A DNA stretch of 64,000 nt from the IMG/VR virus record IMGVR_UViG_3300032753_000007, positions 32,001 to 96,000 of that record; one strand, written 5' to 3'. How positions within the stretch are numbered: position 1 is the stretch's first letter; every line of letters starts with the position of its first letter. Positions 1,883-61,590 of the stretch are shown in pieces. Source of the stretch: a virus. The notes beneath the pieces were generated by a model. That model ran no database searches and was not told the origin of the DNA. It saw nothing but the letters and a program-made list of their open reading frames with translations. The translations under genes were made by a program, and so were the position numbers.

Positions 1883-1995
1883 ATAAATTCAAATAATTTT
1901 AATATAGATATAGTTTACATGAATAAAGAATAATCTTTATTAACGTATCGTTACGTTTTAACGAATTAAATCCCTGATGAAGGGAAGGAAATAAC
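1883..1995 (+). promoter_or_regulatory. Cassette leader copy 1: conserved promoter, 5' hairpins and GATGA-loop hairpin abutting the SD
   Basis: ATAAATTCAAATAATTTTAATATAGATATAGTTTACATGAATAAAGA; hairpins 1922-1941 and 1942-1957; TCCCT-GATGA-AGGGA at 1971-1985, then AAGGA. Repeated at 5869, 35845 and 59714. Confidence 0.85.
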
Positions 1996-2331
1996 ATGAA
2001 AACTTTATATATCTGTAATGCCTTTTCTCTTCAAATGCTTGCGTTTGAAGAGAACATGATACGGGTAACCCCCGTACCATCTCCAGCCGCATGGTTGGAG
2101 AATGTCGAACCATTGTTCGACATTCTCCACTCTGCCGTCGGCCATGCCGACACAGCTGCTATATTTTCTTCCGTATTAAATATGGAAGTAAAAGAAAACA
2201 GGACTTCAATATCGATGTCGAAAGACATAGAGCTATTGGTGGGCCAGTACAGCGGCCCACGCTTGCCAGAGGGGGCAACAACGCTCCCTCAGGGAGCAAC
2301 AATTAAGTGGTTCCATGTTAAGCTAGTATAA
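1996..2331 (+). CDS. acrIII-1: AcrIII-1 family (DUF1874, SIRV1 gp29/YddF-like) viral ring nuclease, anti-type III CRISPR
   Basis: 111 aa with family motifs in order: LYICNAFSLQML, SAVGHADTA (catalytic GH), NR, VGQ..GPRLPEG, C-terminal KWF. Confidence 0.85.
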   Translation: MKTLYICNAFSLQMLAFEENMIRVTPVPSPAAWLENVEPLFDILHSAVGHADTAAIFSSVLNMEVKENRTSISMSKDIELLVGQYSGPRLPEGATTLPQGATIKWFHVKLV

Positions 2332-2383
2332 GCTAGCTTAACATGGTTAGCTAGGCATCAGTGATTAATCACTGATGCCTAGC
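2313..2383 (+). terminator. Tandem hairpins / intrinsic terminator of cassette 1
   Basis: 14-bp stem 2313-2346 overlapping the stop codon, then a perfect 34-bp palindrome 2350-2383 centred on GATTAATC, then a long T tract. Confidence 0.85.
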
Positions 2384-2419
2384 CACTTTTCTTTTTTCTA
2401 TTTTTTTTTTCATTTACAT

Positions 2420-2445
2420 TATATAACTATATTATTACTAAGGTA
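2420..2445 (+). promoter_or_regulatory. Putative phage early promoter (TATATTATT core)
   Basis: CTATATTATTACTAAG. The motif recurs upstream of several accessory operons and resembles the phiKZ early consensus TATATTAC. Confidence 0.55.
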
Positions 2446-2551
2446 AATAACATATCTATTAAGTTTAGGAGTATAAATAATGGATACGTTTTCAAAACCT
2501 AATACCAAAGAAATCATATAATGCAGTATATCACAATAAGGAATGAGTATA

Positions 2552-5553: not shown

Positions 5554-5882
5554 GCTATATTAATAATTGGCTATATCACCATTTGCGTGATATTCAGTTT
5601 AATAAGATACTAAAGATTAATAAAAAACGCCCTAGAGTAGAAAAGAGAATGAGGAAAAGAATTAAACCTACTAAAACTAAACTATTTATTAATGTAACCT
5701 ATCGATCTTATCCTCTTATAAGGTGGTATAAAGAGCTATTAAGAGAAGAGATAGATGATATTATTTTTAATAAACAAAGACTATGGATTAAAGATAGTAT
5801 TAGAGAGCGCTATAACTGGTACAGTGGGTTACGTGCTAGAGTGATTGCTTGTAAAAATAAGGATTTTTATAAATTCAAATAA
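5550..5882 (+). CDS. Highly basic hypothetical protein (3' end runs into cassette 2 leader)
   Basis: ATGA-coupled; the last codons YKFK* are formed by the conserved leader sequence ATAAATTCAAATAA. Confidence 0.55.
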   Translation: MSYINNWLYHHLRDIQFNKILKINKKRPRVEKRMRKRIKPTKTKLFINVTYRSYPLIRWYKELLREEIDDIIFNKQRLWIKDSIRERYNWYSGLRARVIACKNKDFYKFK

Positions 5883-5987
5883 TTTTCATATATATATAGT
5901 TTATATGAATAAAGAATAATCTTTATTTAGTTAACGTTAACTATTAACGCATTCATATGCTGCGATGAGCAGCAAGGATATACGATC
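5869..5987 (+). promoter_or_regulatory. Cassette leader copy 2
   Basis: ATAAATTCAAATAATTTTCATATATATATAGTTTATATGAATAAAGAATAATCTTTATT; palindrome 5928-5943; TGCTGC-GATGA-GCAGCA at 5958-5974, then AAGGA. Confidence 0.85.
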
Positions 5988-6326
5988 ATGAACAAGTTCA
6001 ATAAATTTGCCACTGACTTTTCAACAGGTTTCAAAGTGGGTTATCAAAACCCTCATCGCCTGCCAATGTATTGGGGAATGCTGAAGCTGCATTGGTACGC
6101 AGCTTTTATTAAAGCCTCATATGAGGCTAAACACTCAATTGAAAAACAAAAAGTCCCCCAGTGGGCACTGGGGATCGTGCACCGCGCTTGCGCGGTGCAC
6201 GATAAAAGAATCAACTGGGCTACCAAAAAATTTAATGGAATAGTCTTAGATGGTTGGATGGACTTCGGCTTAGAAGCGCTTAAAGCGCATCTAAGCAGAC
6301 AGATAAGGAGAGCCGAAAGAGGCTAA
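5988..6326 (+). CDS. Cassette 2 cargo: hypothetical protein (candidate anti-defence)
   Basis: 112-aa ORF behind the conserved leader; higher GC than its neighbours; coding sequence rich in hairpins. Confidence 0.75.
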   Translation: MNKFNKFATDFSTGFKVGYQNPHRLPMYWGMLKLHWYAAFIKASYEAKHSIEKQKVPQWALGIVHRACAVHDKRINWATKKFNGIVLDGWMDFGLEALKAHLSRQIRRAERG

Positions 6327-6337
6327 CCTTACGTCGG

Positions 6338-6410
6338 CTTCCAGATTACTTTAAAGTAATCTGGAAGTCAATACTGCTGCAGAGATTAATCTCTGCAGCA
6401 GTATTTTTTT
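6338..6410. terminator. Tandem perfect palindromes / bidirectional terminator
   Basis: 30-bp palindrome 6338-6367 and 36-bp palindrome 6370-6405 (centre GATTAATC) plus T tract, between convergent genes. Confidence 0.85.
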
Positions 6411-21700: not shown

Positions 21701-24700
21701 AGGTATTTTTATTAATGCTCCGCCTTTATCTACTATAAAGCGGCTAATGCCAGATAAGCGTTTAAATGAATTACCAAATTTAATACCTAAATTTTTACGT
21801 ATACTAGGATCACCATCTGGAGAAGGGGCTGCATAGCCCGCTGATGGAATGGTAGCAATAATGGTTTGTAATAGTGTATTAGTGGATGTGCCTGTTTCTG
21901 TCAAAACAGTCATTAGATCTTTATGTTGATCTTTTAATTGTTTAGATAATGAAGTTAATTCATCAGGATTACTGCTATTGAATAAACCATTATGTTTTTG
22001 ATTATCATCATTATTCCATTTAGGTAAATTTAATTTAGGCAATTCTATTTTATTACCGTATTTATCATAGAGCTCAGTGGCATTTGTTTTTAATGCATTT
22101 ACGCCAGTACTCCATCTATTTTTAATGTTCTCTTTTATATCAGAGCCTTTTACTTTTTTTGCTTTATTTTTAATAAGCTCTTTTACTTTATTAACACTGC
22201 CATACTTTTCTTTAAGGTTATTAAACGTAGTTTCTCTGTTATCAAAAGCATGTGTTAATGCAGCATTAATTTGATTAGGTGTTAATCCTTTACTTGTTAA
22301 GTTTTCAAATAGTTTTGGATTTTTTTCTTTTATTAAAGTTTCTAAATTTTCTACTGTTGGTTTATCCGGTAATTGATCTTTATGTTTATCATAGAAACCA
22401 CGAATAGCAGTAGTAGCTGTATTAACTAGCTTATCTTTTCTTTCTAATAAATTAGTTTGTAAAGCTTTAGCATCAAAAGGCGTATGGATTACCTTATTAG
22501 CTTCTTCTAATTTAGTCTTTAATAAATCTTCTATTTCTTTTTTATTAAACCCACGTTTTTCTAATTCAGTAAATAGTTTACCACTTTGTGCAGTTAGTTG
22601 CTTACCGATTTCTTCAGGTTGTAATTGAGCGGGTATTAAATGTTTATGTTTATTATAGAAGGCTTTGCTTTGTTTACTTGCTTCAGTAATGTGTGGTGCA
22701 ACATGTTTTAATAAACCACTTTTAACATTTTCTATATTTTGAGATAATGGGATAGCTGTTAGTTTTCCTTTAGTATCTTGAATATAAGTTGATAGCCCTT
22801 TTATCCGCTTACTGCCAGCACTATATACGCTATTTAAATGTTTAGATAATTCACTTGGTGTGGAAGTATAATTAATAAATCCAGCACTAGGCATTAAATC
22901 AATCATGTTTTGTAGCAGGGCATTATTACTGCTGCTATGTGCTGCTAACGCCTTTAACATATCGCTATGATTAAAGCTCATTACATTAACTAATGTAGTA
23001 ATATTATCATTACTAAAATTAACATTAGTAGTAGGCGATATCCCCTCATTAATGTTAACTGTAGAGGATGTAGGCAATAATGAATTATTACTAGATAATG
23101 GTGTAGGGTGAATGGTTTTACCTGCCATTACTTTCATTCTGGCTTTAGGTGATTTATTTTGATCGCCATATAAAGCGTCAATTAAATCCCAACGATATTG
23201 TTGATTAACAGCACCTTCATTATTGATTAAATTACCTAATAACTCTTTAGTACCTGTTGCATTAGCTTCATTAAGTACGTCACCAAAATTACCCACGCCA
23301 TATCGCAAAGCATTATAATTTCTGCTAATGTCTTTTTTTAATGTAGCAGTTTCTATATCATTGCTTGATACAGTCTTTATTCCGTTTTCATTAAACTCTT
23401 CAGTAATTTTAAACTTTTCTATAAATAAATTAGCAATTTTATTACGAGATTCATATGAGAGTACAGCAGGTAAGTTATCAGGCGATGCATAGTCTATTGG
23501 GTCAAAGTTAACACCTTCAACCGCTGATTGTTTCATAAAGAAAATACCTAAATATTTTCTTTCATTGGCATTTAGTATATTTTTATCAGGATCAATTAAA
23601 TCAATGATATAATCAGCATTTGTTTTTAAATCAACACCGACTTCTTTTTTTAATAGCTCACTAACTCGTTTTTTAGCACTAGATAACGTAGTAAACTGTT
23701 CAGTACGTGTATCAAACGTCAATCGTTCTGCTATTTCACCATTGCCTGATGTGTAGTTATAGAGTTTAGTTTGTTGTTCTAATATACGAGAAAGATAGCC
23801 TGGAATAATCTCTATTAATGAGCGACGTGATATTAAATCCCATGATACTGTTTCTGTAGCATCACTCATTAAATTCTTATTAACAGATTCGCCTAATGTG
23901 CCATTATCGCCACCATTAAATAGCTCGCCTACTGAGCCTACTAATGACCCGTATTCTGCATGTTTAACTTTACGATTAATTATACCTGGTAGATCACCAA
24001 ACCAGCGTGCTAGATCTTGTCCTACTGCATTAGTTTTATTAATGGCGCTAGTGCCTCTTTCACCAAGCACATTTTCAACATGTTTTTTACCATTCTTTTT
24101 TATCCAACCTGCAAATAACTTTCCAAGACCTTCACGCGCTTCATCGCCTGCCATACCTGCTGCCATTTCAGCAGCAGATGGCATAAATTCATCCATGCCA
24201 TCTTCTTGAGGTAAATTAGAATTTATAGCACTAGCAAATTCACTAATTTGTGTTTTTAGATTATTTTTAATACGATTAGGCATATCACCTAATCGATTAC
24301 TAATACTCTTTTGTACACTACCAATGATGCGTCGTTTACTTTCATCTCTAAACTTTTCAGAATTAGTTACTTTAACTTCATTAGGTAATGCTGTATTTTT
24401 AACAACATCAGCTAATAATGTTAATGTTTTACTATTATGAGAAAGCGTATTTTCTAATATGTCTTGTGTAGCAAAATAATGGAGGTATTGTACTTCTAAT
24501 GACTTTTTATAATAAGTAGCTAATATCTTATCTTGAAAACCAACTATTCTTCCAATACCACTAACTATTTTATGCTGATACTCTATACCATGTTGAAATT
24601 TAGCTTTATCTAATTTAATGCTATTTAATTGAATAACATCATCGCGCTTTCTTTTTAACTTACCTTCAAGTTGTTGAGCACCAAAGATAGTTTCTAATGT

Positions 24701-25180
24701 ATCTTTTAATCCTGTTTCTCTTGTATTTGAAGACCGTCCATAATCGTATGAATCGGATTCTTTTCCTACATGAGACATGTCTTTTATTTTATTAGTCACT
24801 TTATTAGGTAAGAATTTACCTAATGTAGGGAGTGCTTTTTGTACTTTTTTATCAATAACATTTAGCGCAGGTGCAAGTTCTTTTCTTGCATCATCAAACA
24901 TGCTCTCTGCATCATATTTAAATGACATAATAGAGCTATAAGCGTCGCCGTAACTACCTGGTAATACATCTTTAATTAACTTACCTATAAAGCCAATGCC
25001 ATGCTCTTTTGGATTAAAACTGCTTTTTAATCCTGACGCTATATCGCTAATAGGTTTGCGATCTTTTTTAATATCAGGATCTGAATCATCAAAATCACCA
25101 AATTCAGATCCAAACTCTTTCATAAAGTCATCATAGTCATCATCTAAATCTAACTTTATATCATCATCTTTCTTTGCCAT
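18707..25180 (-). CDS. Giant virion lytic tail / tape-measure-like protein with lysozyme-superfamily domain (phiKZ gp181-like)
   Basis: 2157 aa; LIEIIPGYLSRI motif; G/A-rich hydrophobic stretch; muralytic domain AES..GYNAYN...FAVGKYQMIP.TL...FD..TQ...EWAS; divergent from the vRNAP genes as in phiKZ. Confidence 0.8.
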   Translation of the reverse strand: MAKKDDDIKLDLDDDYDDFMKEFGSEFGDFDDSDPDIKKDRKPISDIASGLKSSFNPKEHGIGFIGKLIKDVLPGSYGDAYSSIMSFKYDAESMFDDARKELAPALNVIDKKVQKALPTLGKFLPNKVTNKIKDMSHVGKESDSYDYGRSSNTRETGLKDTLETIFGAQQLEGKLKRKRDDVIQLNSIKLDKAKFQHGIEYQHKIVSGIGRIVGFQDKILATYYKKSLEVQYLHYFATQDILENTLSHNSKTLTLLADVVKNTALPNEVKVTNSEKFRDESKRRIIGSVQKSISNRLGDMPNRIKNNLKTQISEFASAINSNLPQEDGMDEFMPSAAEMAAGMAGDEAREGLGKLFAGWIKKNGKKHVENVLGERGTSAINKTNAVGQDLARWFGDLPGIINRKVKHAEYGSLVGSVGELFNGGDNGTLGESVNKNLMSDATETVSWDLISRRSLIEIIPGYLSRILEQQTKLYNYTSGNGEIAERLTFDTRTEQFTTLSSAKKRVSELLKKEVGVDLKTNADYIIDLIDPDKNILNANERKYLGIFFMKQSAVEGVNFDPIDYASPDNLPAVLSYESRNKIANLFIEKFKITEEFNENGIKTVSSNDIETATLKKDISRNYNALRYGVGNFGDVLNEANATGTKELLGNLINNEGAVNQQYRWDLIDALYGDQNKSPKARMKVMAGKTIHPTPLSSNNSLLPTSSTVNINEGISPTTNVNFSNDNITTLVNVMSFNHSDMLKALAAHSSSNNALLQNMIDLMPSAGFINYTSTPSELSKHLNSVYSAGSKRIKGLSTYIQDTKGKLTAIPLSQNIENVKSGLLKHVAPHITEASKQSKAFYNKHKHLIPAQLQPEEIGKQLTAQSGKLFTELEKRGFNKKEIEDLLKTKLEEANKVIHTPFDAKALQTNLLERKDKLVNTATTAIRGFYDKHKDQLPDKPTVENLETLIKEKNPKLFENLTSKGLTPNQINAALTHAFDNRETTFNNLKEKYGSVNKVKELIKNKAKKVKGSDIKENIKNRWSTGVNALKTNATELYDKYGNKIELPKLNLPKWNNDDNQKHNGLFNSSNPDELTSLSKQLKDQHKDLMTVLTETGTSTNTLLQTIIATIPSAGYAAPSPDGDPSIRKNLGIKFGNSFKRLSGISRFIVDKGGALIKIPWTLAKLPFSLAMAAYNPLKTMLGFTGRTLWKGGGFLKRQLMKAPERAQRLAKVGWTVAKVLGPLAAKLGIGSAKLALLPAKLLGNLIWWSAKKAPKRAARAVGTLGKLSWGAFTGTTQVMSNLLFAAMGKRKPDKKDASNWFSKLGGVLKNPVGSISSFFKNRKKTKSVDENVNEISNKLDTINTTLKDIKNYISTKWPTENSEEKEANREGGFQDIIKKRKAKQETAKKLREMGVPTNKKPAPIVTPTGGSILDAFGKAGDLVKDAKGWGGKALGALGIGGAGAAGVAGAGALAGGEAAATAAGAATAAAEGGAGLATVGELGVAGAALGESALLLSNPVGWAIIVGAAGYGLYKGTKYIMNRTALEPLEKLRFLQYGIPIDNSQAVADMRNFESDFTPHITLTKNIPKIDLLPKEVWEKYYKDFGCTYDNMTDKTNFNTWLYKRFLPVYIKHKASLQQFGKSKVDNIDDELKKEDIIKFVNLVQFGSVEANLGMNPYGIQNSPWHDITLSDNKSTIDVLVEQLRNQANRNNDTKADNLKKVSAINLHPTVTKLDKDKPVLPPNYDRDRQQGVNPDGTPKKSMFDQAVDWSKENLLNPIKDFAGKVGDKAKELYTLGKTAAGKGIDWAKVNLVEPVVNSLAGLIKNAESGSKGYNAYNRGTSGNKILGPVGNRDLTSMTLSEILADMNRSANDERRLFAVGKYQMIPPTLIDGIKKLGLNPDTTKFDAKTQELLFSKYLLDKKRPQISAYIKGKTDNPVAAANAAAEEWASLADPNTGRSKHGHGNVASVSAERVITAMNVSRAQYKANLSKGMSEDEAYQVAVSSSSNAIANTNVPINTGGLPPADAFATKGNGPSLASNDMPPMPTSSVMPTPATSVTPANAVTSPIAAASKSTTTSTANDMPPVPSATTLSSVTTQTALNTKPIEDKLVQANKDSANRHDEHLTKLSTTNDLLAQILTTMKSTANTPAQNIIVANASSAKQTLSPVISSGRTY

Positions 25181-25205
25181 TTTTTATACCTATAAAAAGG
25201 ACATC

Positions 25206-27302
25206 ATGTTAAGTAAAAAAGAACCCTTTAATATATTTTTATTAAGTAATCAGAAATCACGTCTGATGGGCCTATTGCCTGTCCAATCAATGGACATTAA
25301 AAACATTGGTGGAGAATTTCATCCACAAGGGCTATACAGTATTGAAATATTTGGTGCACTAGGATCTAGGCAGCGTCAAAATAAACACGCCTATATTGAT
25401 ATGCGCTGTTATGTCATGCATCCTAAAATCTTTAGTGATTTAGAAAAACTAAAAGGACTCTATGCAGGCATCATGAGTAGAAAACAATATGCATTATGGG
25501 ATAATAACATAAAAGACTTTGTTAAGGCTGATGCCATTGATGGTAAAACAGGTTATTCTTTTTTTATGTCTCATTTTGAAGATATTCAGTTTCCACGTAA
25601 TGAGTCAGGCATACGCGATGCACGTATTGATCTATTAATACAAGAACAAAAAAAATGTATGTATCGCTATTTAGTTGTATTACCTGCAGGATTAAGAGAT
25701 TTGACTTATGATGAAAAAGGTCAAGAAGTAGAAGACGAAATTAATCCTATCTATAGAAAAATATTACGTACAGCTAATACTATTTTAGTAGATAATAACA
25801 ACATAAATCCAACAAATATTGATGTGGCTAGATGGACATTACAGACATCATTTAATGAGCTTTATGATTACATAGAATCAATCCTAAGTGGTAAGAAAGG
25901 ACTCATATTATCTAAATTAGCAGCACGCGCAGTGCATGGCGGTACACGGGCTGTATTGACGGCGGCGGATCCATCACCTGCTCATTTAAATGCGCCTGGT
26001 GGCTTTACTGTAAATGATACATTAGTGGGTTTACATCAATATATAAAAGGTACAGTAGAGTTAACTATTTATGGTATTAAAACAGGGTTAGCTAAAGACA
26101 TTATTGATAGATTACCTGGTGAAATATCATTAGTTAATAAAAGCACTTTAACTAAAATAACATTAAACCCATCAACTGATACAGTTACATTATGGGGTGG
26201 CGAAGTAGGATTAGAAAAACTAATTAATAAGTTTGAAAAACCTATTATACGACATAACCCTATAATGATTGATGGTCATTATTTAGCTTTGTTATATAGA
26301 GATAGTACGCATTTTAAAGTACTGTATGATATTACTGATTTACCTAAAGAGTTTAATAAAGCTAACGTAAAACCTATTACATGGGCTGAGTTTTTTTATT
26401 TAGCTGTTTATGAGCGCGTTAAAGATGTAGCAGTTTATGTTACGCGTTATCCTATTACTGAATTAGGTAGTATTTATCCATCTATGGTTAAATTACAAAC
26501 AACTGTACAGTGTGAAAAGCTAATACCATTAGATGATGATTGGAAACCTATAACTACTAATGTAAATGAAGTAACTGCCTACGCAATGCCTGTTTTAGGT
26601 AAACCCTTTTATGATAGTATCTCTGTACATACTACAAAGCTTCTTGAATTAAACGCAGATTATGACGGTGATAAAGTAAATGCTGTATTTGTAATGTCTA
26701 AAGAAGCAGTAGATGAAGTAAAAAAATACCATCATACAAAAACTACTTTTTTAAATAGTAGTGGTAGTTTACGGTATGGTGCTTGTGGTGTTAAAGATCC
26801 ATTAATTGGCTTGATATTACAAGGACTAACATCCGGTTTAGATAAAGATAAAATAATTACTATAGAGCCATTAAAAGAGAGTGAAACTAAAAATTATATT
26901 CAGTTAGTTGAACATAAATCACATGACCCTTCATTAGGTGGCATTGTTATTGATAAATTAAAAGCTGAATCTATTTATAGTAATTTATCTGATAGTGCTA
27001 ATATAGGCTATACATTGAAACGAGGTAGTGCTATAGTTGGATTTGCTGTTTTTATTCGATCAGGCGTTTCTATGTCAGGTGAATTATACTGTATTGTTTT
27101 AGATATTTATTCAGGTAATAACTACGGCTATAAAATACTTAAAACATTATTAAAGCAATTAAAAACACTAGGTGTTAAAGAAGTCATTACTACTGTAGGT
27201 AAAGACGCATCTGCTGGTATTGTTTTATGTAAAAAACTAGGCTTTATGTATGTGCCAATTAAATCACCTAATGTAATAGAATATCGTTTGAGGTTATTAT
27301 GA
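25206..27302 (+). CDS. Virion RNA polymerase beta' catalytic subunit (phiKZ gp180-like) with C-terminal GNAT-like domain
   Basis: GLYSIEIFG, VLPAGLRD, GKKG, TRYP and catalytic NADYDGD (aa ~483-489). The last ~150 aa resemble a GNAT fold. Confidence 0.88.
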   Translation: MLSKKEPFNIFLLSNQKSRLMGLLPVQSMDIKNIGGEFHPQGLYSIEIFGALGSRQRQNKHAYIDMRCYVMHPKIFSDLEKLKGLYAGIMSRKQYALWDNNIKDFVKADAIDGKTGYSFFMSHFEDIQFPRNESGIRDARIDLLIQEQKKCMYRYLVVLPAGLRDLTYDEKGQEVEDEINPIYRKILRTANTILVDNNNINPTNIDVARWTLQTSFNELYDYIESILSGKKGLILSKLAARAVHGGTRAVLTAADPSPAHLNAPGGFTVNDTLVGLHQYIKGTVELTIYGIKTGLAKDIIDRLPGEISLVNKSTLTKITLNPSTDTVTLWGGEVGLEKLINKFEKPIIRHNPIMIDGHYLALLYRDSTHFKVLYDITDLPKEFNKANVKPITWAEFFYLAVYERVKDVAVYVTRYPITELGSIYPSMVKLQTTVQCEKLIPLDDDWKPITTNVNEVTAYAMPVLGKPFYDSISVHTTKLLELNADYDGDKVNAVFVMSKEAVDEVKKYHHTKTTFLNSSGSLRYGACGVKDPLIGLILQGLTSGLDKDKIITIEPLKESETKNYIQLVEHKSHDPSLGGIVIDKLKAESIYSNLSDSANIGYTLKRGSAIVGFAVFIRSGVSMSGELYCIVLDIYSGNNYGYKILKTLLKQLKTLGVKEVITTVGKDASAGIVLCKKLGFMYVPIKSPNVIEYRLRLL

Positions 27303-33925: not shown

Positions 33926-33963
33926 TAAATAATTACAAAGCTATATTATTGTTATGCAGTACA
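33926..33963 (+). promoter_or_regulatory. Putative early promoter (near-identical to 36485-36522)
   Basis: TAAATAATTACAAAGCTATATTATTGTTATGCAGTACA. Confidence 0.75.
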
Positions 33964-33996
33964 CTTAATTTAAACTCAAAATAGAGGAATACAAAA

Positions 33997-35844: not shown

Positions 35845-35938
35845 ATAAATTCAAATAATTTTCATATATATATAGTTAATATGAATAAAGACAATTCCGT
35901 CTTTTCAAACGCTGCGATGAGCAGCAAGGAAAAATATT
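35845..35938 (+). promoter_or_regulatory. Cassette leader copy 3
   Basis: ATAAATTCAAATAATTTTCATATATATATAGTTAATATGAATAAAGACAATTCCGTCTTT; GCTGC-GATGA-GCAGC at 35911-35925, then AAGGA. Confidence 0.85.
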
Positions 35939-36310
35939 ATGTTTGTTTTAAAATCAGTACAACCGTTCTCTAATATAGATAACGGAAAAGTAAACTTGAC
36001 AATAACAATAACGCTAAACGGAGGTGTGGTTACAGCAAAAAGAGTAGAGTGCAGATATCTGCACGGGGTGTCCACTAACAAGCTTGTAGTAGAGAAAGAA
36101 ATCACCATTGTAGAAATGGAAGCTCTGCTTCAGTTCTACAACATTATGGACTATCTAACTCATCTCACTGATGAGTTAGTAAGAATTGAAGAAATGCCTA
36201 ATAACCACTTACATATAAGGGACTTAGAAGAGAAAATTAAGGAAATGGAAAAAACCAGTTCCTTACTAAGGAAGGCATTTCCAGATAGGATAAAAGACTT
36301 TATCTGGTAA
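35939..36310 (+). CDS. Cassette 3 cargo: hypothetical protein (candidate anti-defence)
   Basis: 123-aa ORF behind the conserved leader; internal hairpins. Confidence 0.75.
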   Translation: MFVLKSVQPFSNIDNGKVNLTITITLNGGVVTAKRVECRYLHGVSTNKLVVEKEITIVEMEALLQFYNIMDYLTHLTDELVRIEEMPNNHLHIRDLEEKIKEMEKTSSLLRKAFPDRIKDFIW

Positions 36311-36318
36311 GACTTCAG

Positions 36319-36362
36319 CTACCGCAGAGAGATTAATCTCTCTGCGGTAGTATTTTTTTTTT
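36319..36362 (+). terminator. Cassette 3 terminator, perfect 32-bp palindrome
   Basis: CTACCGCAGAGAGATT|AATCTCTCTGCGGTAG plus long T tract. Confidence 0.85.
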
Positions 36363-36484
36363 CTATTCATTTTTATATTGATATTATTACTATGCTAATT
36401 AAATATAGTTAGCTTTAACTTAATGCTTAATGAGAATTTAAAATGGAAAAAGCACCATTCATGCCACCTACTAAGTAAATTATG

Positions 36485-36522
36485 TAAATAATTACAAAGC
36501 TATATCATTACTATGCAGTACA
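36485..36522 (+). promoter_or_regulatory. Putative early promoter (near-identical to 33926-33963)
   Basis: TAAATAATTACAAAGCTATATCATTACTATGCAGTACA. Another core, GATATTATTACTATG, lies at 36380-36394. Confidence 0.75.
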
Positions 36523-36553
36523 ATCAACTCAATTAATCTAAAGGAAAAATAAA

Positions 36554-54568: not shown

Positions 54569-54630
54569 GGCATTACCTCAGCTAAAAAATGAATACACAT
54601 TATAACTTTATGTATGGCTAGTTATATCAA

Positions 54631-54660
54631 GATAATTTAAATGATATATTATTACTATGC
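54631..54660 (+). promoter_or_regulatory. Putative early promoter
   Basis: GATAATTTAAATGATATATTATTACTATGC. Confidence 0.6.
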
Positions 54661-54690
54661 TTTATACTACAACTAACTAGGAAAAATTCA

Positions 54691-57551: not shown

Positions 57552-59717
57552 ATGAGTGATGCTTTTGTTAAACCACCTGACCACTATCATAGAGACCTAG
57601 ATATTAAAGGCAATGCTGAGCTAATAGCAGCTAAATATTTACAAGTCAAAACAGGACAATCATTTGATGTTTGTTTAGATTTTGTTAAAAAAGAAACAAG
57701 TGATAATGGTTTATTTCCGTTAGCGCCTAAACATTTAAAAGTATTAAGAAAAGATCAAAATCAAGATAGAGTAAAAGACGTTTATAGCATTGATAAGATA
57801 TTAGGTATAGCAACGCATGAGAAAGCAGCACTAACGGGTAATATGTGCGTGTATAGCTCAAATGAAAATATACCATGTAGTACGGCTAATTATATAAATG
57901 ATAAGTTAAATCTAAGAGCTTCTATTAAAGAGAAAGAAAAGATTGCTGAACAAGAAGGAAATAAACTATTAGCAATGACCTGTAACAATGGTCAAACTGC
58001 TGCAAAGCTATTAAATAACTCAGTATCAGGTGCTAGAGTATCACCTTATAATCCCTTACATTTAAAAACAGCACATTCTTCATTAACCTCTACCACTATG
58101 TTGTCAGTTAGTTATAGTAACTCATCTACTGAAAGATTCTTATCTGGAAATAGGCATTATTATAATCTCTCAGTCACTATTGACGCTATCCTATCTGTTA
58201 CATTAAATACAGATTATCGAGCCTTAGAAGCGACTGTCGTTAAGTATAGGCTATATATACCTAATACGTCAGATGTATTTAAAAGCATTAAGCGCTGTAG
58301 TAAGTTCTATTGGAAAAATACACATTGGGATGATGAGTTAATAGATATTATTAACGGATTAACTGATTTAGAAAAATGTGCTTTTTTATATACAGGTGAT
58401 TTTTTTAATCTCTCTAAACACAATCCAGACTTTGTAAGAGGTTTGTTATTTGAAGGTATACAGCCTGCTGATACAAATAGAGATATTGATTCAGATGCTA
58501 TTGTAAAATCTGCTGATGCAGATATTATTGCATTATGTTCAGTATTATGTTCTGAGTTTTTAACAGGCACAATACCTGCTAAAATTAAAGCAACTAACCC
58601 AGAGCAATACAAGTACTTTGCTTGTACTATACTAGATGTTTGTAATTACATGAATAAATACAGTGATTTGTTTAGCACATTATTTGCTACTGTTAATATG
58701 CCATTAATGATTAGTGAGTTTCCTAATTCAATTAGACGCTCTGTAATGGGGTCTGATACAGATTCTAATATGTTTACTGTACAAGAATGGATAGTTTGGT
58801 TATTTGGTAAAGTTATTTTTTCTATTGAATCCACTAAAATAGCACAACTATTGTGTTACTTAGTATCTGAAGTAACCGCACATTCATTAATATCCTTATC
58901 ACGCCAATTAGGCGTTAAAGATAAAGAATTATATCGATTAAAAATGAAAAGTGAATTTAGCTTTGCTATTTATGGTAGAGCAAATAAAGCTAAGCACTAT
59001 GCTACATTAATGACCTCACGTGAAGGCAATGTATTCTCAACACCTAAGTTTGAAATTAAAGGTGTGGGATTAAAAGATTCTAAAATACCTAAATCTATTA
59101 TAGGTCGCTTAGAAGAAGAATTTATTTATTTGTTTACTAAAATAACAAATAACAAAGGTATTGATATTTACCTATTATTACAACGGATTGCTAACTTAGA
59201 ACACTCAATTATGGAAGATTTAAATAAAGGCGATATTCAGTATTTATCAATGGTTAAAATAGCTAATAAAGAAGCTTATAAAAAACCAATGGCTAGTAAG
59301 TACATGCATTATGACTTATGGCAAAATGTTTATGAAAAAAAGTTTGGATCAGTAGGCGCGCCGCCTTATCAATGCGTTAAAATATCTACTACATTAATTA
59401 ATAAAACCAGTATAGAAAAATGGATAGCTGCATCAGATAGTAGCTATAGAAATGAATTAGAAGAGTGGTTAATTAGAAATAATAAGACATCATTAAAGAT
59501 GTTATTAGTGCCATTAGAGTTGTTTAAAACAGGATTGCCTAAAGAGTTTTCTGACTTGATTGATAAACGTAAAATTATAAGTGAGTTAATTTCAGGCTAT
59601 TATACATTATTAGAAATCATAGGGTTTTATGTACGTAATGAATCCACATCAATTCTATTAATGGATGATATAGAATATAGACCAGAATATGGATTACCAG
59701 GTGATGAATTAAAATAA
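57552..59717 (+). CDS. Family-B DNA polymerase, polymerase subunit (phiKZ gp50-like)
   Basis: Q.AAKLLNNSVSGA (motif B), SDTDS (motif C), KHY and KGV; no N-terminal exonuclease motifs evident (split enzyme in this group). Confidence 0.85.
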   Translation: MSDAFVKPPDHYHRDLDIKGNAELIAAKYLQVKTGQSFDVCLDFVKKETSDNGLFPLAPKHLKVLRKDQNQDRVKDVYSIDKILGIATHEKAALTGNMCVYSSNENIPCSTANYINDKLNLRASIKEKEKIAEQEGNKLLAMTCNNGQTAAKLLNNSVSGARVSPYNPLHLKTAHSSLTSTTMLSVSYSNSSTERFLSGNRHYYNLSVTIDAILSVTLNTDYRALEATVVKYRLYIPNTSDVFKSIKRCSKFYWKNTHWDDELIDIINGLTDLEKCAFLYTGDFFNLSKHNPDFVRGLLFEGIQPADTNRDIDSDAIVKSADADIIALCSVLCSEFLTGTIPAKIKATNPEQYKYFACTILDVCNYMNKYSDLFSTLFATVNMPLMISEFPNSIRRSVMGSDTDSNMFTVQEWIVWLFGKVIFSIESTKIAQLLCYLVSEVTAHSLISLSRQLGVKDKELYRLKMKSEFSFAIYGRANKAKHYATLMTSREGNVFSTPKFEIKGVGLKDSKIPKSIIGRLEEEFIYLFTKITNNKGIDIYLLLQRIANLEHSIMEDLNKGDIQYLSMVKIANKEAYKKPMASKYMHYDLWQNVYEKKFGSVGAPPYQCVKISTTLINKTSIEKWIAASDSSYRNELEEWLIRNNKTSLKMLLVPLELFKTGLPKEFSDLIDKRKIISELISGYYTLLEIIGFYVRNESTSILLMDDIEYRPEYGLPGDELK
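59220..59258 (+). repeat. 39-bp segment of the polymerase gene repeated at 59966-60004
   Basis: TTAAATAAAGGCGATATTCAGTATTTATCAATGGTTAAA vs TTAAATAAAGGGGATATACAATATTTATCAATGGTTAAA; 36/39 identical, both encode LNKGDIQYLSMVK. Confidence 0.9.
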
Positions 59718-59809
59718 ATTCAAACTTTTTTTCATATATATATAATTTATATGAATAAAGACAATTCCGTCCTTACATTAACGCTGCAATGAGCAGCAGG
59801 AGCTTTACA
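59714..59809 (+). promoter_or_regulatory. Cassette leader copy 4
   Basis: ATAAATTCAAACTTTTTTTCATATATATATAATTTATATGAATAAAGACAATTCCGTCC; GCTGC-AATGA-GCAGC at 59783-59797, then AGGAG. Confidence 0.85.
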
Positions 59810-60202
59810 ATGAGTTTAGTCGCCAAGAGCAACCACAACAAATTTAATAACAAATACGACGGTGACGTATTTCCACTGTTGACGGAAACAATATTTACTC
59901 AGCATGAGGCTGATATATCGGAACATAGCCTAGTAAAATTGAAAATCGAACTCATTTATGAGAACTTAAATAAAGGGGATATACAATATTTATCAATGGT
60001 TAAACTCCGTGAGGACCTTGTATACCAAACAAGGTACATAAGCGATCTTAAAGAAAAAATAGTAAAGGATCACGAGTTTTTACTTAAAACTCCGTGTAAG
60101 GGTACTTTAGAAACTAGCGTTGAGGCTGCATTAAATGCAGCATATGATGATCATCTACAATGGCTAGCCGAATTTATAGCCGATATGTGTAGTTCTTCTT
60201 AA
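59810..60202 (+). CDS. Cassette 4 cargo: hypothetical protein containing a DNA-polymerase-derived peptide
   Basis: True start is probably 59810 (AGGAG SD); the track start 59789 lies in the leader hairpin loop. Confidence 0.75.
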   Translation: MSLVAKSNHNKFNNKYDGDVFPLLTETIFTQHEADISEHSLVKLKIELIYENLNKGDIQYLSMVKLREDLVYQTRYISDLKEKIVKDHEFLLKTPCKGTLETSVEAALNAAYDDHLQWLAEFIADMCSSS

Positions 60203-60210
60203 CCATTTAT

Positions 60211-60250
60211 TACCACTATAGAGTTTAAACTCTATAGTGGTATTTTTTTT
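60211..60250. terminator. Cassette 4 terminator, perfect 32-bp palindrome
   Basis: TACCACTATAGAGTTT|AAACTCTATAGTGGTA plus T tract, between convergent genes. Confidence 0.85.
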
Positions 60251-61307: not shown

Positions 61308-61340
61308 ATATATCTCCTAATAGTCATAGGATTAACATGA

Positions 61341-61376
61341 TTCAAATAATTTATATAGCTACATTATAGCTGTGAG
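61341..61376 (+). promoter_or_regulatory. Putative early promoter
   Basis: TTCAAATAATTTATATAGCTACATTATAGCTGTG; shares TTCAAATAATT with the cassette leaders. Confidence 0.5.
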
Positions 61377-61404
61377 TAAATACAATTAATTAAACGAGGA
61401 ATAT

Positions 61405-61590
61405 ATGACTAATAATGATACCCAACCAGTTAATAACGATACTAATAAAGAAGTATCGTTTAATAGCAGCCTCAATAACTTAAAACCTATGTCTGATGAA
61501 CAATTAAAGCTCTACACTGAGACAGTTGACAATCCAAACATAAGTTTTAATGAAAAACTATTAGTACTTAATTCAAAATACGGCAAATAG
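61405..61590 (+). CDS. Small hypothetical protein
   Basis: GAGGA SD; 61 aa. Confidence 0.6.
   Translation: MTNNDTQPVNNDTNKEVSFNSSLNNLKPMSDEQLKLYTETVDNPNISFNEKLLVLNSKYGK

Follow-up and report, generated by a model that had tools for sequence, protein, structure and literature searches.

A constant-loop hairpin set against the Shine-Dalgarno sequence of putative early genes in a divergent phiKZ-type jumbo phage

Seven Shine-Dalgarno (SD) sequences, six in one virus record and one on a lake metagenome contig, directly follow a small hairpin whose loop is GAUGA in six cases and AAUGA in one (cassette 4, G1 to A), AUGA being invariant. Its stem is made of four unrelated sequences (UCCCU, GCUGC, UCCAC and CCGCU). 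Judged from the sequence, this hairpin is a real, selected and previously undescribed translation-start signal on at least seven putative early genes. The reading that we tentatively favour is a translation operator: a trans-acting factor would read the loop and thereby control the access of the ribosome.

The window, i.e. the whole stretch of 64,000 nucleotides that was analysed, corresponds to bases 32001-96000 of one 109,752-bp virus record with a G+C content of 32.7% and a CheckV completeness of 41%. Because the PHROG matches in the record include split multisubunit RNA-polymerase beta subunits, a tail protein of the phiKZ gp29 type and other virion proteins, we assign it to the phiKZ-type jumbo phages, of which its source appears to be a very divergent, uncultured and lake-borne member. 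The DNA polymerase of this phage has at most about 34% identity to that of any GenBank phage, known phiKZ-like ones included, and megablast of 20 kb against the GenBank phages retrieved no close known phage. The sequencing runs that contain the sequence of the record are lake, pond and freshwater metagenomes. Two relatives were used for comparison, a 220-kb IMG/VR record (G001; polymerase identity 47%) and a 9.6-kb fragment (G008; 42%). On the minus strand of G001 (G001:C1:109820-110410) a 667-aa ORF has a weak but significant similarity to the nuclear shell protein gp105 of 201phi2-1, a chimallin homologue (E 9e-8). Because of this shell protein the clade of our phage and G001 is probably nucleus-forming; no chimallin gene was found in the 41%-complete record of our phage. 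A separate 55.8-kb lake metagenome contig (L031) is collinear with another region of G001; with the record it has only a leader and a terminator in common. It probably comes from a region of the same phage, or of a close strain, that the record lacks.

In four cassettes of the window the same parts follow each other in the same order: a promoter, a 5'-proximal hairpin, an AU-rich linker, the GAUGA hairpin, the SD, a single ORF of 111-130 aa and a terminator, which is each time a perfect palindrome of 30-36 nt with a T run. The linkers of cassettes 1 and 2 contain an extra hairpin. The features are, in window coordinates:

1885..1921, + strand: promoter of cassette 1, with the conserved AT-rich block AAATTCAAATAATTTT...TA(C/T)ATG (repeat families D1-D3)
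1922-1941, + strand: 5'-proximal hairpin of cassette 1, AAUAAAGA-AUAA-UCUUUAUU
1942-1957, + strand: middle hairpin of cassette 1, AACGUA-UCGU-UACGUU
1971..1985, + strand: RBS hairpin 1, UCCCU-GAUGA-AGGGA; AGGA at 1986-1989, ATG at 1996
1996..2331, + strand: cargo of cassette 1, 111 aa, STIV B116 / DUF1874; G+C 45.5% vs 32.7% for the record
2350..2383, + strand: terminator of cassette 1, a 34-nt perfect palindrome centred on ATTAAT, then a T-rich run
5871-5907, 5908-5927 and 5928-5943, + strand: promoter, 5' hairpin and middle palindromic hairpin of cassette 2
5958..5974, + strand: RBS hairpin 2, UGCUGC-GAUGA-GCAGCA; SD AAGGA at 5974-5978, ATG at 5988
5988..6405, + strand: cargo and terminators of cassette 2, 112 aa, no family, G+C 44%; palindromes at 6338-6367 and 6370-6405, then T9
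35847..35904, + strand: promoter and 5' hairpin of cassette 3, the latter AAAGAC-AAUUCC-GUCUUU at 35887-35904
35911..35925, + strand: RBS hairpin 3, GCUGC-GAUGA-GCAGC; SD AAGGA at 35926-35930, ATG at 35939
35939..36350, + strand: cargo and terminator of cassette 3, 123 aa, no family; palindrome at 36319-36350, then a T run
59716..59774, + strand: promoter and 5' hairpin of cassette 4, the hairpin at 59757-59774 with one mismatch
59783..59797, + strand: RBS hairpin 4, GCUGC-AAUGA-GCAGC, the sole loop variant; SD AGGAG at 59798-59802, ATG at 59810
59810..60242, + strand: cargo and terminator of cassette 4, 130 aa; palindrome at 60211-60242, then T8
61338..61404, + strand: promoter of the same class without an RBS hairpin; its first gene, ATG at 61405, has an SD

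A sequence-only reading had proposed the four hairpins of the window, at 1971, 5958, 35911 and 59783; all are there letter for letter, and an AAGGA or AGGAG begins 0-1 nt past each of them. It had also placed the hairpin at every cassette. This holds for the four cassettes of the window, which share their leader, but not for two other promoters of this class (record position 24090, window position 61338), whose first gene has no hairpin; at the latter the covariance model of the hairpin (R1) has no match. The promoter of cassette 4 begins directly past the stop codon of the DNA polymerase gene. The stems of the terminators at 2350-2383, 6370-6405, 36319-36350 and 60211-60242, which are 32-36 nt long with ATTAAT or TTTAAA at their centres, covary between cassettes, and a TATTTTTT-type run follows the terminator in three of the four cassettes (not in cassette 1).

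The whole record was scanned on both strands for perfect 5-bp stems closing a RAUGA loop. Seven were found, vs 0.83 expected from first-order Markov simulations (simulated maximum 5), and six of the seven abut an SD, all on the + strand. Two of these six lie outside the window, UCCAC-GAUGA-GUGGA at record position 24753 and CCGCU-GAUGA-AGCGG at 25147, upstream of internal genes of the operon whose promoter, of the same class, is that at record position 24090. The seventh SD-linked site is GCUGC-GAUGA-GCAGC on L031. The loop is thus kept in additional copies, these three further sites all being GAUGA. Of the genes whose SD can be recognised, 6 have an abutting hairpin where about 1 is expected, and five of these six hairpins are of the RAUGA type. 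The hairpins are located only downstream of one conserved promoter class, the two internal operon genes included. No Rfam family matches the window at gathering score, and in record 24001-25500 the only matches are spurious ones of microRNA precursors on a terminator palindrome. In record 24751-24797 the SD lies at the junction of the GAUGA hairpin and of a second one, GAGAUUC-AGAU-GAAUCUU, and is predicted to be largely paired; the start codon is within the loop and stem of this second hairpin.

Covariation was assayed on an anchored alignment of the copies of the genome and of L031 (7 sites). Pairing is fully kept (35/35 stem cells), and in four of the five stem pairs both partners have changed in a compensatory way. 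The covariation score reaches 0.99 vs 0.27 after shuffling (0/500 shuffles as high) and at most 0.19 in slid controls, values that have to be read with an independent sample of only four stems, one stem class being common to about 4-5 of the 7 copies. At least seven stem pairs are replaced, vs one change in the loop. The proposal that the stem changes while pairing is kept is therefore borne out, except that it had opposed copy 1 to the rest, i.e. two stem classes instead of four. The pattern shows that the pairing of the module is under selection and that the loop is held while the stems are replaced. The stems are G+C-rich, 5-7 bp long in a genome of 33% G+C, and their 3' arm leads directly into the SD. 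Folding energies range from -6.1 to -7.6 kcal/mol and stem probabilities in context from 0.67 to 1.0; hairpin 1 has -6.4 kcal/mol with pair probabilities of 0.67-0.88, hairpin 2 -7.6 kcal/mol for its 5-bp core with a stem probability of 1.0, and hairpin 4 -6.8 kcal/mol. In a contig about 4% divergent (run X6) no change is listed in hairpin 1.

Since the stems covary, a double-stranded DNA operator appears excluded. An inverted repeat could nevertheless be the target of a dimeric DNA-binding protein, or mark a recombination site at the cassette boundary, and in one cassette a junction of cargo exchange does lie 8-9 nt downstream of the hairpin. We consider such a DNA-level element extremely improbable: arms that change completely yet stay complementary are the signature of RNA or single-strand folding, the element is 50-80 nt downstream of the promoter, and it is strand-specific, always on the coding strand beside the SD. 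Homologous recombination between the conserved leader and terminator accounts for the exchange junctions. Three further candidates were rejected: an RNase III site, the stem being too short; a DNA hairpin promoter of the N4 type, as the SD must be transcribed and the polymerase is multisubunit; and a mimic of Cas6f-type repeats, as the stems vary.

The distance from the end of the stem to GGA is constant (1-2 nt) while that from the stem to the AUG varies (10-14 nt). The position of the module is thus set by the SD and not by the start codon. The SD itself is predicted to be accessible to a very variable extent (P unpaired 0.05-0.65). In cassette 1, the purine-rich segment formed by the 3' arm of the hairpin and the SD is also predicted to pair with CCUUUUCUCUUC, about 30 nt into the coding sequence (window 1996-2040), and in the minimum-energy fold this pairing competes with the GAUGA hairpin. 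The target feature of CsrA/RsmA, a GGA in the loop, was not found at the hairpins: the loop has no GGA, and that of the SD is 1-2 nt 3' of the stem.

By its shape the hairpin is close to the boxB of lambda and P22, which spans 15 nt, with 5 bp in the stem and five loop bases of which the first is G and the last A. Six loops of seven are GAUGA, the seventh is AAUGA, and all stems have at least 5 bp. We take hairpin 1 to match the boxB of lambda nutL except at one loop base and at the outermost pair, and the copy at record 25147 to resemble the boxB of P22; by analogy with P22, GAUGA could fold in the manner of a GNRA loop, U3 being flipped out. The hairpins might then be nut elements, on which an arginine-rich peptide of the N type would bind the nascent RNA and allow read-through of the strong terminator that ends each cassette. 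This seems highly improbable. The strict adjacency to the SD, at internal genes as well, is not a property of nut sites and points to translation rather than to transcription antitermination, and the AAUGA copy lacks G1. No leader of the four has a boxA-like partner (similar to CGCUCUUUA, up to one mismatch), and the matches in the window, 15 vs 11.5 expected, are at chance level. No N-like gene was identified, N proteins being too short and diverse for a search and the record 41% complete. Moreover, phiKZ-type phages transcribe with their own RNA polymerases (PMC7598289).

The promoter class that precedes the hairpins has six copies in the record, and its core is common to the sister phages G001 and G008. 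In jumbo phages, conserved AT-rich motifs serve as early promoters, and in those that encode RNA polymerases the early motif is the sole strongly conserved promoter motif visible by bioinformatics (review PMC7598289). Because of this precedent we infer that the class is the early one, which would be read by the virion RNA polymerase. The 5'-proximal hairpin is exchanged between cassettes, as the sequence-only reading had described; copies 1 and 2 have AAUAAAGA-AUAA-UCUUUAUU, copies 3 and 4 AAAGAC-AAUUCC-GUCUUU, with one mismatch in copy 4. It covaries among the cassettes and with the leaders of record 24090, G001 and G008. A second repeated intergenic motif, with the core ATATTATTACTATGC, occurs at window 2399-2450, 33926-33973, 36351-36402, 36485-36532 and 54629-54676, often just past a cassette terminator. 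TATG, found in the core of phiKZ late promoters, is part of it, so that the motif may represent promoters of a middle or late class. The first gene of the operon behind the promoter at record 24090 (record 24170-24580) encodes a protein of 136 aa with a TTG start, which matches phrog_12854 and has no Pfam match; its G-S...D-x-D pattern resembles, by eye, that of a minimal nucleotidyltransferase.

The restriction of an element with an invariant loop to this putative early class, together with the chimallin homologue of G001, would also suit an address tag, the second option of the sequence-only reading, by which a phage factor marks early messages for export or selection from the early compartment or the nucleus, or recruits ribosomes to them. 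Export, however, does not need a hairpin within 1-2 nt of the SD. Two first genes behind promoters of the same class have no hairpin, the loop is absent from G001, and the shell protein gene was found in the sister phage but not in the incomplete record of this one. We hold a tag of this kind to be very unlikely.

In G001 at least six cassettes have the same layout; here the hairpin adjacent to the SD is CCUC-AUA-GAGG, CCUC-UAAA-GAGG or CCCU-AUA-AGGG, and a C separates it from AGGAG. The promoter and the 5' hairpin are also present in G008, one leader of which has a long stem that ends 2 nt before AGGAG. The covariance model R1 detects only the six sites of the record and that of L031, and no RAUGA site in the nine other phiKZ-type records (G001-G009); in these it has two weak matches, 15.5 bits in G003 (E 0.35) and 22 bits within coding DNA in G007, the latter apparently due to chance. 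Hairpins abutting the SD are not enriched in the distant relatives 201phi2-1 and G003. Pattern scans of IMG/VR, for the promoter and for the GCUGC-RAUGA hairpin, retrieved only G001 or chance matches in unrelated DNA, and a scan of metagenomes provided one useful contig, L031. A stem beside the SD of early genes thus appears to be a trait of a small clade, and the RAUGA loop to be specific to this lineage.

These sister phages bear directly on how the hairpin is read. Since they keep a stem adjacent to the SD without the RAUGA loop, with other loops (AUA, UAAA) or a different form of stem, the ancestral or basic role of the hairpin would be independent of this loop, a point against an operator read through its loop. 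The module could instead be a purely structural leader acting in cis, which would protect the message from decay dependent on its 5' end and shield the ribosome site from an exchanged cargo, the loop being kept by descent and by its stabilising G-A first mismatch with no reader at all. The layout invites a comparison with the 5' UTR of ompA, which is said to stabilise its message. As in ompA, a 5'-terminal hairpin is followed by an AU-rich single strand, a second hairpin and the SD; the latter is, however, the leader of a host gene rather than a repeated mobile module, and needs no particular loop sequence. The hairpins are indeed found on horizontally acquired cargo of foreign G+C content that is exchanged in the population. 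Moreover, the 3' end of the 16S rRNA paired to the SD would, as we assume from the geometry of the SD/anti-SD helix, finish about where the hairpin starts, so that the hairpin may stack on this helix. Several observations do not fit a structural leader. Loops usually drift faster than stems, the reverse of what is seen here; thermodynamics accounts for the G...A ends of the loop and not for its invariant inner AUG; the accessibility predicted for the SD, moderate at most, makes insulation not evident; and the module is not found at the highly expressed late genes. We regard a purely structural role as possible, though rather doubtful.

The sole loop variant alters G1 and keeps AUGA, which fits a reading of the loop as codons equally well and is a second point against the operator. 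In this case the AUG of the loop would be the real start of a mini-cistron of 5-8 codons that crosses the SD and ends at the main start, and termination followed by reinitiation would free expression from any influence of the cargo sequence. The synthetic "bicistronic design" would then have a natural counterpart. Five of the seven copies have a stop codon at the main start (TGA overlapping the ATG in three, TAA 1 nt before it in two), and none has an earlier stop; given a background rate of 0.147 for a stop at the start, P is about 1e-3 for this post-hoc, unplanned comparison on a small sample of partly non-independent copies. At record 25147 the upstream gene also ends with TGATGA inside the loop. 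Yet the AUG of the loop should be a poor start, because no SD precedes it and because it is confined to five loop nucleotides above a stem of -6 to -7.6 kcal/mol. In one copy it is in frame with the main ORF; in another, and in one metagenome variant, the mini-ORF overlaps the main ORF out of frame. The loops of the G001 hairpins have no AUG, and the fixed distance between hairpin and SD is not explained by a mini-cistron. Translation from the loop is therefore, in our view, unlikely.

We return to the translation operator. The sequence-only reading had called the hairpin an RNA operator recognised by a protein, comparable in role to the target of Aca2. An RNA operator is supported by the invariant loop carried by four compensated stems, by the fixed distance to the SD, by the single promoter class and by the covariation that speaks against a DNA operator; no binder was found, nor does anything tie the motif to Aca2, and the stems of the sister phages lack RAUGA. 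The loop would be the sequence-specific contact of the trans-acting factor, most likely an RNA-binding protein or a nuclease encoded by the phage. Bound beside the SD, this factor would control the access of the 30S subunit, and the messages that carry the hairpin would form one post-transcriptional regulon. In the simplest version, early and anti-defence messages, strongly transcribed, would be shut off; the factor might equally well activate them. The 5'-proximal hairpin, together with the AU-rich linker, may contribute to the stability of the message and provide a standby site for the ribosome. The known translational regulators RegA (PF01818) and RegB (PF10715) have no match at E values up to 1 in this record or in G001, both incomplete. 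Likewise, an RNA exposing a complementary UCAUC in a hairpin loop has no convincing case outside the coding regions of the 41%-complete record.

Protein-recognised operators on the side of the SD include the thrS operator, the operator of T4 gene 43, those bound by the coat proteins of RNA phages, and the site of Aca2 on acr mRNA. As here, a small hairpin with a specific loop lies beside or over the ribosome site, and the bound protein competes with the 30S subunit. Most of them, however, control one gene or operon through its own product, whereas our hairpin is found at seven or more unrelated genes.

The closest published parallel in logic is the start-associated sequence (SAS) of Cluster K mycobacteriophages and its extended form (ESAS). 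This conserved element marks the ribosome site of some non-structural genes, whose products are unrelated, and has been proposed to act in translation initiation, possibly via a factor of the phage or of its host (Pope et al. 2011, PMC3203893). The likeness is that of a start-associated element on a subset of genes with unrelated products. The SAS, whose consensus is GGGATAGGAGCCC, is an invariable stretch of 13 nt located 3-7 nt upstream of the start and including the SD itself; the ESAS adds 17-bp imperfect inverted repeats to it (PMC3203893). In our phage, by contrast, a 5-nt loop on a covarying stem lies upstream of an ordinary SD; the sequences and the phage groups are unrelated, and at the seven sites only the SD core is in common with the SAS consensus.

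The genes behind the hairpins differ from cassette to cassette. The cargo of cassette 1 belongs to Pfam PF08960 (STIV B116 / DUF1874, the family of the AcrIII-1 ring nucleases; E 1.3e-7) and to phrog_5063. The other cargo proteins match no Pfam family, and two of them match PHROG families of unknown function. No HTH family was found among the cargo proteins in Pfam or PHROGs, and the cassettes are single-gene. The G+C content of cargo 1 and 2 is 44-46%, that of the genome 33%. In four lake or pond runs, contigs match the leader of cassette 2 as far as 5981/5982, immediately behind the SD, then diverge, and match the window again at 6352-6371, in the terminator. This indicates that the cargo is exchanged in the phage population by recombination between the same leader and terminator. 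The loose ends of these lake contigs contain other cargo and other variants of the linker, with no change listed in the hairpin; in one variant GCUGC-GAUGA is visible. In cassette 4, a 39-nt stretch of the DNA polymerase gene (59220-59258) is repeated with 92% identity within the cargo ORF (59966-60004; family D9).

In this context, rather than in the hairpin itself, the cassettes resemble the PeSL of T4-type phages, in which modules made of an early promoter and a terminator flank small variable ORFs and serve homologous exchange (Comeau, Arbiol and Krisch 2014, PMC4122927; Arbiol et al. 2010, PMC2839356). Here too a shared promoter-leader and a terminator family flank unrelated ORFs of foreign G+C content, with exchange points at 5981/5982 and 6352-6371. 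The PeSL differs in being a composite of promoter and terminator without a fixed-loop hairpin fused to the SD, and it belongs to another phage family with another polymerase.

As a motif the element is well supported by the comparisons above, and it would be a translation-start operator or a leader hairpin. It is a compact candidate operator, 15 nt with a fixed loop set against the SD, and it has the covariation that is usually needed to call an RNA motif real. A broader version of the operator, decidedly unlikely as it stands, would make the hairpin the address of a post-transcriptional regulon in jumbo phages of the nucleus-forming type: a phage factor, possibly delivered with the virion, would read the loop and grant the early anti-defence messages privileged translation, a timed shut-off or a route out of the early infection compartment, each lineage having its own loop "code". 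The hairpin may also belong to a portable expression unit for newly acquired genes, with a cargo of the AcrIII-1 family (DUF1874) and an exchange of cargo between the same leader and terminator. The finding thus bears on how phiKZ-type phages may control the translation of their first messages and switch off their early anti-defence genes.
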